From Rotaria socialis (taxonomy: Eukaryota): DNA of 48,204 nt. Positions 40,981-46,303 of this stretch are shown piece after piece (the stretch's first letter is position 1; each line of letters begins with the position of its first letter). The position numbers were made by a program, and so were the translations under genes. The notes beneath the pieces were generated by a model, which saw nothing but the letters and a program-made list of their open reading frames with translations, was not told where the DNA came from and did not search any database. The DNA lies in the NCBI GenBank assembly GCA_905331295.1, contig CAJNYD010000029.1:1-48204 (forward strand). The letters are read 5' to 3'.

Positions 40981-41046
40981 GGGTGTAGATGTGGGTGTGT
41001 GTGTAAATTGCTGTGGTACACGAACACCCACACCTACACCCTCAAG
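40981..41046. mobile_element. ~66-bp telomere-repeat foldback element, copy A
   Basis: gggtgtagatgtgggtgtgtgtgtaaattgctgtggtacacgaacacccacacctacaccctcaag, with att on both sides. It is nearly identical to 43842-43907. Confidence 0.75.
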
Positions 41047-43811
41047 ATTCGCCCCATTTCTATAAGAGTATTGAAAAAAAAATATTAAGTTTTGTTTTCT
41101 TTAAATCATTCAAATGATTAGCAAAATATAGTAATAAATCGTATAGAAATGAATATTATTTTAATCTTGTTTACCGAAAGCTACTTTTTCTAAAATATTT
41201 GAAGATTCTATTACAATTTTGTTTTTCAATGAATATAGGATTTTTTCCTCTTCTCATCGAAAAAGGATAGAAATGATTCGTTATAAAAAAGATGAGTGTA
41301 TTTATTTTCCTATGTAGCTTCAAGATCGTTTTCTAAATGTGAAAACCATAAATCCGCTACTGAATTTTCGAAAAATTCACTTCTGAATACTTGAAACCTA
41401 AAACGAAACACTTAATTTATAACCGCAAGAGGGAAAATGTTTCAACTGTGTTAATGATTTTTTCAAAAAGGAAAAATAACTTTTTCTTTTTATTGTTTTC
41501 GCGCATTTCAATCTCAATTAGAATTCTTGTGTCAGTTGTGACATATGTATTACATTTTCGAGGACCCGTCGTGCACATCGCTTGGATTTTATTGTCAGCT
41601 TGTGACTGTTAATCGAAGTAGCAGTATTCATTGCGCGATTCTATCGTCTATTCTTGTCTACTTGCACGTAAAATAATTTCGTATAGAAGGGAGAAGTATG
41701 AAAGCGTAACATAGGAAACAGAATGAACATCGAGTTACTTCAACAGCTTTCCTTCGAAGCACTTTGGTATTTTTGTTGTTATGCATAGATGTTCATGCGT
41801 GTAAAAATCAATGATGTAGTAAGCATCAAAAAGAAGTTACTAGGTGTATGTTATTTGACGAAGAACGATGAAGTTTATTTATTCTTTATACTTGACGACG
41901 AAACGGAGAGGACGTATAAGAACAGAAAGAAAAAGAAAAAGAAGATGAGCGATGGCAAGATGAGGTTGAAACAAAATGTAAGAAAAAAGCAGCAGCATGT
42001 TTTCATACATATCATGCTCATTTGTTTTATCAAAGAAATCTAAGTATATTTTACGTGGAGCAAATTTATAAGTCACTCCTCGATTGTTTTAATAAGTGGT
42101 GAATGAAAACAAAACAAAGCAAAATATAATAGATTAAGACTCAATCTAATGGTGAATAAGTTAGCTCGAAAGCACTTTCAAGCTAGCATTGCTTGTTTTC
42201 TGATTAGAATTTGATGTATAATATTAGACATTTGGCGCTAAGTATTTCAAAACATTTCATGAAGCCTGGAAATCGAAAAGACTACCAAAAAGTATAAAAG
42301 CAGTAGTGATAAGATAATTCAATGCTTCATGATTTCAATAGAAGTATCCGAGTAGATCATAACAAACTCTATGTGATGTAGACCACTATTAATGTTTTTA
42401 TGAGGGGTGTGTAAAGACTGAGCTTTGAAAATTCTCTCCATTACTACGAATTCAATGAAAAACTACAAAAATAAATTTCCATTGAATCGGGATTCATGCG
42501 AAGATCTTACACATCTCTCTCCCACAATACCCTTCAACTATTTTTACATGTACAATCTAAGTCCCTGAAACAACACATTAGCTGTACTTCCTAATCACCT
42601 TTCAGATCACTGTTACTTCACTAAATAATCGACCAAAGACCATTCGAAATACGTCAAACTGATGAAGTGGAAATGAATCATCAACAATGATCCCGATGAG
42701 AACTATGAACGATAAAAATAAAATAAAATCACCATAAATCTATAACCAAAAGAAATCGTCACCGCTTAACCTCGACATAAATAGATTACTTCACTGAAAA
42801 ATATTGTCACGATGATACAAAGAAATTCAAATGACTAAGACTTTTCACAAAAATCGTCTGAATCTTTTGGTTTTCTAAATTAGTCTCTAAGCTTTCCTTC
42901 TCACTTCCAGATAATATTCTCTCGCTAAATTATTTTCCAGATATCTAAACAGATTTTTTTGCAACAATAGAAATCCTTTGTAATGCCGCAAGAAACTGAG
43001 AGAATATACCTTCTGCTGATTCTTCGAGCAACTGTGCAAATGATAACTAATATGTAGTGCTTGAGAAAATGGATACGTGAAGAATACATGTCCGGGAGCA
43101 GAAGTATTATGACAGTTCTAATGATACTACCTAGAAATTGAAGTGGATATCTAGCAGGTACGAATCCTCAATTCCACGAGGTGTTGAGAGTAGATGTCAT
43201 CTAGGTATTTAACTCTTTCTTTAGATAATATCAGTAGAACTGTCGAAGGTTTTTCTTTTCTTGATATATTTCGTGCATCTAGAATACAGATAAAATGAGA
43301 GTCTAGTTTTTTCCGGAGGATTTTTTTCGAAACTGAATAATCACAGTTCTCTCATTGTTAATGTTTCACTTCATAGAACTTTGTTGAACTAAGATGGAAT
43401 ATTGGCGGAGCAGTGATTGTAATTATTTCTGTCAGTTTTCCGATCAGATATTGATCCTAAATGCTGGCCATTCCTTTACCTTCTCACGTAGGAACTTTTC
43501 AAATGCTATTACCTATCAGGTGTATGAAAATGCTTTTCGATAGTATCGATAGGCATCGGAAGAATTCTCAAGCTGTCGTTTTGAGCAGTCTCCATTCGAC
43601 ACTACTGACTTTCTCAGAACAAAGAACATCCATTTAGTAAGAAATAGTTTAAGTTCTTAGCACACGACACTGAAATTAAGTTATCGCCTGTAATAGTTTC
43701 AGTAAATAAGTCTGATTGAAGTTTTGTTAGTATCATCGATTTTTTCTTTTAAAAAAATCATTCGACATCAGTTTTTCCCATTTCACTTAATAACGGACAT
43801 GAATACACAAT

Positions 43812-46303
43812 AGCTCACTATGGGCAGACTTGAAGCATAGTTCCTTTAGGGGTGTGGTTGTGTGTAAATTGCTTTGGTACACGAACACCCACATCCACAC
43901 CCTCAAGATAGTGACCAAATTTATCTTGTTCCAGAACATGATAATGCATTTTCAAAACCAAGCAATGTTTCATTCGTTATCAAATCTGATCATCCAATCG
44001 ATATATCGTCTTCGTCATTGAGTTTCATTTCAAAATTAATTGATATTGAAGAGGATGACGTTGATTTGCAATTAGATAAAGTCGATGGGAAAATACCTCG
44101 ACAGCAAGATTCACGATTGTATGAAATAATGCTTTTTTTCTATTGAAATTTATTTAGAGTTTTCTTTAGATGTCATCATAATCGGCATGGCAAATGTCTT
44201 CATTGTATACCAATAGAACCATACGACGAAGAATATTTGAAAAATCATAGTCCACCTATTAAACATATGTCGTTTCAAGCTTACATTAGAAAATTACAAA
44301 ATGAAGCATCTGTTGAAAAGTAATAAATATTGTTTTTTGATAAAGTTGACCTTTGATATTTCTCTTTTGTTTGGTAGAAATACATTTTCTAGCCTCGAAA
44401 ATATAAGTTGCTCGATCAAAGAACAATGTTTGACAGGTCATCCACCATGGCCAAAAGATATAATTTTAGCCTATATAAGAGAAAACTCTCATCAGGCATA
44501 TTTATATAGGTGTTTGTTCAACATGTCAACCGAATCAGATGACACTTATGAGTCAGGTAGAGAGTTTCTGAACAAAAACAAAATACAAACATTAACATTT
44601 GATAACCATAACCATGAGGTCTTTGATCAGCCAAAAAAATCTGTTAAAATCTCATTCAATGCTTTGAATTTGTTTTTTGTTTATAGACACATCGTCATGT
44701 TGATAACATCACGTTTGAAAATGGAAATATGGTCAATCGTTTTCTTGAATATTGGCGTTCATCAGGCCATCAGCGCATTGGTTTTCTCTATGGTCGATAT
44801 GAAATCTACGATGGTGTTCCGCTTGGTGTTCGAGCTGTTGTTGCTGCTATCTATGAACCACCACAAGTAAAAACTTAGCTTTGAATTTCATTTTGTTTTT
44901 AAAAGTAGAATTCTTTGATATAGGAAACATCAAAAGATAGCGCTCAATTGATTTTCCCTGATCCACAGGAGGCTACTATTGATAAACTAGCCTATCGTCT
45001 TGGTATTCGTCGTATTGGATGGATATTTACGGATCCTATTTCGAATGATAAAAGATCTGGTACTGGGCCTGTTATTCATCATCGAGGAAGTGCGGTATGA
45101 CAAAATAAAATTGGCATAGTTCAAGTTTCTTCAAACATAATTTTTCGAATAGAATACATTGTTTTTAACTGCTCAAGAATGTATTATGGTCGGTTGGTTT
45201 CAAAATAAAAATTTGAATAAGTGTAAATACTCATCCGATGGATATTTTGGCTCGAAATTTGTTACTGTTGTGGTGATCGGGAATGCAACTGGACAAATTC
45301 AATTTGAAGGATATCAAGTATCGAATCAATGTATGGCTTTAGTTAGATCAGAAATTTTACTACCGACGTTTGATGCACCTGAATTAGGTTATATTAAAGA
45401 AACAAGTCCTGAACAATATGTTCCTGATGTTTATTTTAAAGTAAGCATTAAACGAAATAAGGATTCAATAAAGATTTAGTTTCTAATAGGAAAAAGATTC
45501 TTACAATAATGAAATCATGAAAATTGGGCGTCCATTGCCTTTAGAATATTTAATTCTTGATGTTCCAACAGGTTTTCCAACAGCAAATCATCAAATGAAA
45601 TCAACATTTAATGATACATGCTCAATCATGAAAACACCATTCTGCATTGAAAAGCGAACGCGAACTGATGAATTACAAGTAACACGATTATATGTCAGTA
45701 AAACTTAGTAAATAGATTTCCTGTATTCAATAGGATATGGATACTTTAGCTTTATATTTACAAAAATTCGCAGAAATTGATGTTAAACGAGCAAATTCAC
45801 TCACATATAAAACAACAGATATTTTAGCTGCTCTTCATCTATTGCGATATTTGGTAGCTAATGGTATTTTTCAGTTTTCTATGGTAAGACAAAAGAGAAA
45901 TTCGAAAGGTCTCGTCGACTGTTACAATAGCATTTTTTTTTAATGATAGGTATATATTCTATAAAATAACACAATATTTAGGATCAAATCGATCCATTAT
46001 TTGATGCATTACGAAACAATGATCTAAATGGAGTTACAACATGGATCGAAAGTGAGGTATGGCAAACATTACTTCAACTTCTTCAAATTGAACGTACGTA
46101 TACATATTCTCTAATCGTAAAACGATTTTATTTGAAAAATAATTACTGTAGTCCCAGGCTTATCATCATCTATGAAGCAATTAACTCCTACGGTTACCAA
46201 TGAATAGTCATCAAATTGGACATGTTCAGAATGTACTTTTCTCAATGATAATTCCAATCAAACGTGTGATATGTGTTCGTTAGGTAGAAATGCGGCCTCT
46301 TAA
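43812..46303 (+). pseudogene. NPLOC4: Multi-exon NPL4 (p97/Cdc48 cofactor) copy with several lesions
   Basis: [73 protein letters not shown]...AIYEPPQ, YFGSKFVTVVV, GYQVSNQCMALV and a C-terminal NZF finger WTCSECTFLN...CDMC. Lesions: a 71-bp insertion at 43842, a donor reading AT near 44458, and TAG at 46205-46207. The 5' exons were not found. Confidence 0.92.
43842..43907. mobile_element. 66-bp telomere-repeat foldback element, copy B, inserted in NPL4
   Basis: Flanked by direct repeats ATAGT (43837-43841, 43908-43912). Removing 71 nt restores the frame LKHSDQIYLVP. Confidence 0.8.

Follow-up and report, generated by a model that had tools for sequence, protein, structure and literature searches.

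The closest known system to the elements described here is that of vertebrate short interstitial telomeric sequences (s-ITS and TERC-ITS). According to the accessible parts of two reports (PMC7215372, PMC8537989), a few telomere repeats mark repaired breaks there, with in-register priming, random filler, occasional head-to-head tracts, and sequence copied from beside the telomerase template. Short foldbacks that resemble them in these respects were analyzed in a 48,204-nucleotide (nt) stretch of Rotaria socialis DNA (contig CAJNYD010000029.1, positions 1 to 48,204; hereafter the window). Two of these foldbacks, copies A and B, have one core in common, and B had been placed inside an exon of NPL4 by an earlier analysis of the letters alone (the sequence-only reading). 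We propose, at a probability of roughly two in three, that A and B are head-to-head telomere-tract scars, in which capped broken ends were joined via filler and the core was recopied from an older scar.

Copies A and B share a core with telomere-repeat arms

By protein match, the window DNA appears to be that of the bdelloid R. socialis: an R. socialis protein matches the NPL4 exon at 45153-45440 with 100% identity, and R. magnacalcarata matches it with 94%. The telomere repeat of bdelloids is TGTGGG, as given in the consulted portions of PMC7943196 and PMC8494291. The arms of copies A and B consist of three to four degenerate hexamers of this repeat, set head to head, a feature that the sequence-only reading overlooked. 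The core (40998-41048 in A, 43859-43909 in B) is identical at 48 of 51 bases and the spacers at 18 of 19, and the flanks are no more alike than expected by chance (identity 0.26-0.40 over 30-300 nt). This bears out the claim that one foldback is present twice, in unrelated surroundings. The probability that 2 of 11 foldbacks have such a common spacer by chance is ~2e-6. Both copies are crossed by contigs from other sequencing runs (an X8 contig over 40729-43945 and record 17 of X2), which rules out an assembly artefact; X2 is possibly the source of the window DNA.

Compared with shuffled sequences, copy A folded strongly (z -5.9) and copy B weakly (z -1.8, with 9/200 shuffles equally good). 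The outer arms of B differ from those of A. Both arms of copy A contain the same mirrored variant (GGGTGTAG..) and are near mirror images, which suggests arm-to-arm copying. No match to Rfam was obtained at the gathering score, and the matches that appeared were hairpin look-alikes. The A/B core was found neither in viral contigs nor in 48 metagenome loci.

Copy B lies at a joint rather than within an NPL4 exon

To the right of B, the NPL4 match runs from 43910 on, with 64/68 residues and a best-case DNA identity of 97-98%. The frame to the left of ATAGT reads IHNSSLWADLKHS and is at best 60-67% NPL4-like, as judged from proteins and back-translation; stops follow shortly upstream. Contigs of X8 did not cover the NPL4 exons, possibly because of a filter. 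R. socialis also has an intact NPL4 copy (P0131, P0132), which reads KKSPIDRSSVKINFRHG-DQIYL (IDRSSVKINFRHG-DQIYL, with FRHG-DQIYL at the joint). This differs from LKHS-DQIYL, which the sequence-only reading had obtained by removing B. An unanchored, frameshift-tolerant search with NPL4 residues 1-68 against 43540-43848 scored 14.6 bits (random mean 14.4), and its right-hand control scored 219. Intact NPL4 thus matches 43812-43841 at nothing approaching the level seen on the right, the outcome that the sequence-only reading had itself named as refuting an insertion.

In two related organisms (run X10, record 2, and run X13, record 9), the left flank is ~96% identical through ATAGT and TCCTTTA to 43848. 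Beyond this point both contigs continue with the same letters (CGCAGG..), which are neither NPL4 nor telomere repeat. Consequently, B starts at 43849 and the left ATAGT is part of the flank, 7 nt outside the true boundary. The right ATAGT overlaps by 2 nt the TCAAGAT end, which copy A has too. Hence, the two ATAGT between which B had been placed do exist (43837-43841 and 43908-43912), but neither lies at an edge of the unit. Two random sites have a 5-mer in common within 20 nt in 28% of cases. Short contigs in X2, X10, and X13 match through ATAGT, as they might if ATAGT were part leader, but the length cut-off favors such matches.

A 43841-43908 joint, as expected of an empty site, was absent from the five sequencing runs compared, and the flanks of B come from different loci. 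The proposed check for an empty NPL4 site and a target-site duplication thus yielded neither in the relatives. Across the 11 units, the longest word common to the two flanks was 3-5 nt, which is chance level and of no constant length; in copy A it was 3 nt. With the poor NPL4 match on the left and the relatives' flank running into other DNA, the insertion reading fails: the left flank does not represent the 5' portion of this NPL4 copy. By these alignments, copy B is apparently a rearrangement joint at the severed 5' end of an NPL4 pseudogene.

Miniature inverted-repeat transposable elements (MITEs) and foldback DNA transposons are short, have inverted ends, and occur in several copies. The sequence-only reading amounts to a tiny element of this kind, with telomere-like inverted ends, in an NPL4 exon with a 5-bp duplication. 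Its multi-copy core with inverted arms, the two ATAGT near B, and a weak NPL4 likeness of the left flank, when anchored at the proposed position, fit this model. The model is largely refuted for B, where the left ATAGT belongs to a flank common to relatives that do not continue into NPL4. Moreover, A lacks a duplication, the outer arms differ between the copies, and the spacers differ in almost all units. We therefore regard the model as very improbable.

The anchored likeness (11-28 codons, same frame, p 0.0005-0.015) would also fit a left flank that is a very old, decayed 5' part of NPL4, next to a right part that gene conversion later renewed from the intact gene. However, no trace of residues 1-40 was found, and in the relatives the flank (96% identical) loses the frame through a 1-nt insertion behind 43791, with no NPL4 beyond it. 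This explanation is scarcely credible.

The GT at 43840 and the AG at 43906-43907, by which B had been proposed to be spliced out, are present, but splicing would not rescue the frame. The introns inferred in the NPL4 copy start with GTA and end with TAG in 7/7 cases, whereas the proposed intron starts with GTT and ends with AAG. After splicing, a stop would stand 14 codons upstream (43800) with no Met in between; because of such stops, nothing would be rescued. An introner-like spliceable insertion was rejected on the same grounds. The presumed-RNA run X18 contained only an 83%-alike relative of NPL4 and no junction, and is uninformative either way.

Foldback polarity and breakpoints

At the chosen threshold, 27 telomere tracts were detected in the window. 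All 10 close pairs on opposite strands had the G-arm followed by the C-arm (p=0.002), and 30 Markov shuffles of the window yielded 0 such pairs. Among 18 hand-picked metagenome loci the ratio was 19 G-C to 1 C-G, although these loci had been preselected by the G-C pattern. Spacers measure 11-40 nt and are unrelated except in A/B and U1/U7. A purine-then-pyrimidine polarity of the spacers was rejected (10 vs 10 of 24, p=0.13), and a search for local templates was uninformative, with longest matches of 9-11 nt to other parts of the window.

The metagenome scan comprised 48 loci, of which 15 AT-rich ones were used for the spacer and read-through tests and 18 for leader and spacer comparisons. They were picked by GC content and by eye, and the other 30 (palindromes, simple repeats, GC-rich DNA) were dropped. 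About 15 AT-rich loci have the same build with different spacers; rotifer origin was checked for L048 only. High spacer scores among L015, L031, L047, and L048 came from untrimmed arm remnants and were disregarded. In L048, the foldback (2698-2856) is located at the severed start of a leucine-rich-repeat frame opposite a rotifer F-box gene, on a contig that ends within repeats.

Self-alignment showed that segment 889-1476 copies 7133-7726, starting in U1 and ending at the lone G-tract. Telomere tracts coincide with 4/5 traceable breakpoints (889, 1476, 13219, and 43849/43910, but not 220/15730; P ~1e-6), whereas tracts with margins make up 2.2% of the window. At 43849, 1476, and 13220, the tract starts abruptly where tract-free homologous sequence continues. 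The breakpoint without a tract belongs to an F-box-type gene end, whose inverted copy is 99% identical (1-220 vs 15730-15949). Two further lone G-tracts start with TGA-GGG (26956-26990 and 30562-30591); they have no nearby C-arm and gave no hammerhead match in the scan.

A leader precedes some of the tracts

The motif CT[TC]GA precedes 10/72 tract starts, or 9/71 with A/B counted once, against 1/255 other GGG sites (p=6e-6). The match fades outward through ATCTTGA, as would be expected if priming took place at varying positions along an RNA template. The full leader is present on 8/72 tract starts. ATCTTGA (TCAAGAT on the C-arm side) may have been copied from RNA beside the telomere template, but its enrichment is only suggestive of sequence adjacent to the template of a telomerase RNA. 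A literature search, which covered the sources in part, found no bdelloid telomerase RNA. Read-through by one base after tracts was not enriched (T 9, A 7, C 4 of 20). In two metagenome foldbacks (L015 2116-2190 and L025 753-815), the left side has a TCTTGA leader and the right side has CAGCCGTAA, which may represent another type of leader. With a templated leader, CTTGAGGG would be the expected first addition to non-telomeric primers ending in AT.

Reuse of the core and a proposed mechanism

Further contigs from the same organism contain the core. Records 18 and 19 of X2 have 43859-43893 with other left flanks, and records 19 and 20 of X8 contain parts of it; record 20 covers 43867-43908 with one hexamer fewer and a different right flank. 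The core is thus found at no fewer than four loci, namely A, B, and at least two further contigs with other flanks. The view of the sequence-only reading that the units can be copied holds for the core, but discrete insertion into an NPL4 exon with a 5-bp duplication is not supported. Dispersed copies with a conserved interior are a property of the A/B core and not of the foldbacks generally. The spacer of U1 is that of U7 turned around, and both units adjoin the same gene end: one flank was swapped and the spacer inverted. This swap and the mirrored arms of copy A favor recopying at the DNA level via repeat homology.

In the proposed mechanism, a DNA break would be followed by de novo repeat addition through telomerase-type synthesis, primed by a few bases of microhomology and often starting in the fixed leader, which was likely copied from RNA beside the repeat template. 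For A. vaga, the parts of PMC13564844 that we drew on describe telomere repeats at deletion breakpoints, which supports this step. Two capped ends would then be joined end to end via a short filler. Later, a telomere tail would invade an older scar through repeat homology. Either the spacer and the far arm would be copied, turning the G-tail into a C-tail able to pair with another capped end, or one flank would be swapped at a time. Both routes would leave the same spacer in new flanks without a target-site duplication.

The inverted spacer of U1/U7 and the near-mirror arms of copy A, including the variant base, would also be expected if only one tract had existed at first and fold-back or template switching had then produced the second arm as its copy. 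Template switching at inverted repeats typically leads to such an inversion of the spacer. However, arm variants are not mirrored in other units (compared by eye), both outer ends can have their own leader (L015, L026, L046), and neither flank is an inverted copy of the other. Such a one-ended origin is improbable.

Alternatively, a reverse transcriptase at a broken end could have copied the leader, the repeat template, and ~25 nt of 5' flank from an RNA, repeatedly and independently. The RNA would be telomerase RNA or a Terminon/Athena-type RNA end, and the C/A-rich tail would have paired with another capped end. Copies A, B, and that in X8 record 20 all end at the leader while the number of hexamers varies, and 43859 is the first base of both X2 copies. 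The repeats are preceded, at a distance of 2 nt, by a short stem (GTGTA/TACAC), a position occupied by template-boundary helices in other telomerase RNAs. In vertebrates, TERC-ITS of types B and C contain copies of the sequence immediately 5' or 3' to the template, as described in the portions of PMC8537989 that we consulted. Conversely, the stem is no better than in shuffles (z -0.9), and in two related organisms the depth over the spacer was zero at 89% likeness (bin 43854-43874). In addition, tracts have no general read-through base, other full-leader units have other spacers, the spacer is not significantly similar to the Terminon tails of the window (p 0.26-0.88), and no hammerhead was found at A or B. 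Copying from RNA is thus unlikely as the origin of the core, and it is the stop of three copies at the leader's end that keeps it under consideration. If it were true, a transcribed locus conserved across species, with the A/B spacer and ACACCCTCAAGAT, would be expected.

Several points weigh against joined ends with DNA-level recopying. The common stop of A, B, and the record-20 copy is one of them, as copying from DNA predicts no fixed end. The mirrored variant in copy A means that this arm, at least, did not arise independently. When anchored at the position proposed by the sequence-only reading, the left flank of B exceeds chance NPL4 likeness (p 0.002-0.015 with the same-species protein, p 0.0005-0.006 with R. 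magnacalcarata NPL4), which the unanchored search did not confirm. The relatives compared at B are other organisms, so the direction of the rearrangement follows by parsimony, and the empty-site comparison covers copy B only. The 4/5 breakpoints are a small set that we picked from self-BLAST. Finally, the repeat-adding enzyme may be telomerase or the Athena reverse transcriptase.

Other features of the window

The window contains genes and fragments of TPR, F-box, GTPase, and kinase types and looks like a subtelomere-type rearranged region. Coordinates are collected in Table 1. In the NPL4 copy, a splice donor has been lost near 44458, and a TAG at 46205-46207 stops the frame prematurely. In R. 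magnacalcarata, lysozyme-like and NPL4 fragments have neighboring accession numbers and lie on contigs of the same length, which suggests that this arrangement is older than the split between the two species. The R. magnacalcarata annotation also has a shortened, frameshift-type lysozyme-like product.

The left-flank block of B (41732-43848) is ~96% alike in the two related organisms, and their NPL4-like pieces only 82-90%. The block is possibly a mobile segment or one that was shared recently. A 44-nt inverted repeat lies within it (43111-43244).

Three Terminon/Athena-type 3' ends were observed (5917-6054, 6907-7052, and 7105-7132), two with a minimal hammerhead-like core and the third severed at its palindromic stem, with telomere repeats as a cap. 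A hammerhead pattern scan of the window gave matches only at 5980 and 6978, both on the minus strand. Two intronless open reading frames (7194-10571, minus strand; 32262-34022, plus strand) encode an ADP-ribosyltransferase-like domain followed by TPR repeats, and the former ends 7 nt from U7. A 71-nt repeat adjoins both assembly gaps (13078-13148 and 47732-47802) and contains the degenerate hammerhead-like CTGATATGAG on the minus strand. Larger, non-telomeric inverted-repeat structures with arms of 60-200 nt (1526-2344, 18654-19005, and 39104-39816) are possibly foldback or MITE-like elements.

Table 1. Positions of foldbacks, tracts, and neighboring features in the window
Feature	Position	Strand	Remarks
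Foldback U1	888-936	+	U7 spacer, inverted; left boundary of 590-nt duplicate of 7133-7726
Lone G-tract	1476-1504	+	Start is the exact point where the duplicate departs from its source (source goes on TCAAC..)
Foldback, own spacer	3114-3174	+	Tract scan
Foldback, own spacer	3422-3487	+	Tract scan
Putative Terminon/Athena-type 3' end	5917-5985	-	Hammerhead-like motif, then CACACCC repeats; architecture as in the parts consulted of PMC6431247
Second putative Terminon/Athena-type 3' end	6907-6983	-	Hammerhead-like, with CACACCC repeats; architecture from the same parts of PMC6431247
Foldback U7	7133-7186	+	Between 29-nt Terminon-end-like fragment (7105-7132) and TPR gene end
Foldback	13220-13274	+	Start is the exact point where duplicate 13145-13219 departs from source 13920-13994
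Foldback, own spacer	27326-27409	+	Tract scan
Foldback, own spacer	28879-28963	+	Tract scan
Two tandem foldbacks	34230-34374	+	Second G-arm near 34310 under score threshold
Lysozyme-like gene, frameshifted	40403-40960	-	5' end adjoins copy A; 66% identity to P0158, which has PF00959
Copy A	40981-41048	+	G-arm 40981-41004, spacer 41005-41023, C-arm 41024-41041, TCAAGAT 41042-41048
Left-flank block	41732-43848		No long open reading frame; ~96% identical in two related organisms, with other neighbors there
Left ATAGT and TCCTTTA	43837-43848	+	End of left-flank block; present in two related organisms; outside B, no target-site duplication
Copy B	43849-43909	+	G-arm 43849-43865, spacer 43866-43884, C-arm 43885-43902, TCAAGAT 43903-43909
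Right ATAGT	43908-43912	+	Last 2 nt of leader and first NPL4-copy codon position (intact: His-Gly)
NPL4 duplicate, putative pseudogene	43910-46303	+	Without residues 1-68 (ubiquitin-like domain)

Implications

How bdelloids mend their chromosomes and reshuffle or take up DNA in subtelomere-like regions is a long-standing question. A scar that can be counted at rearrangement joints makes this question testable, and the recurrence of one core at several joints points to scars as seeds of further rearrangement. A fixed leader also provides a concrete search key, ACACCCUCAAGAU, for the RNA from which the repeats are copied. For annotation, hairpins of this kind can by chance be read as insertions with a 5-bp duplication.

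A more speculative extension, which we consider doubtful, is that bdelloid scars act as self-propagating adapters, an old scar serving as the splint that turns a telomere tail into its complement. Scars could then join any two healed ends and drive the shuffling of blocks without a transposon. In the boldest version, ATCTTGA and the A/B core would be cDNA footprints of bdelloid telomerase RNA, comprising boundary stem, template, and 3' flank; a simple search would then find the telomerase RNA gene.

Comparison with known systems

In the literature searched, neither dense head-to-head scars nor the reuse of spacers was found to be described for bdelloids, though Gladyshev and Arkhipova 2007 and Arkhipova et al. 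2017 may describe such junctions. Compared with MITEs and foldback transposons, the units are similarly short and have terminal inverted repeats, here degenerate telomere-repeat arms, and their core occurs in several copies. They differ in having no target-site duplication and no empty site, and in their variable arms and unrelated interiors.

The remaining comparisons refer to what the consulted parts of the cited papers describe; PMC2861651 and PMC12133305 were drawn on in the same way. As in s-ITS, the arms consist of a few units of the host telomere repeat, but at B the two flanks are not collinear in an empty locus. Head-to-head tracts are rare among TERC-ITS (3/41), whereas 10/10 pairs in 48 kb have this arrangement here. 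Furthermore, s-ITS and TERC-ITS usually occupy one collinear locus; here, the flanks that were traced are blocks without relation to each other, and entire cores recur.

The bdelloid retroelements of the Penelope-like Terminon/Athena type (PMC6431247) have the same repeats and are present in the window; short telomere tracts truncate them. Their own tracts are co-oriented and follow a hammerhead, whereas those of A and B are opposed and lack one. Neotelomeres and neotelomere fusions, described in A. vaga (PMC13564844) and in cancer (PMC11293586), likewise involve de novo repeats at break ends that are later fused, with genes disrupted. However, they have one tract or long tracts, and recopying of junctions is not described in those parts of the reports; here, two tracts of 2-4 repeats face each other across 11-40 nt. 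Fusion-type interstitial telomeric sequences, as classified in PMC8537989, have the same G-then-C polarity. They are one-off fusions of true chromosome ends, whereas the foldbacks of the window are tiny, dense, and located inside gene fragments.

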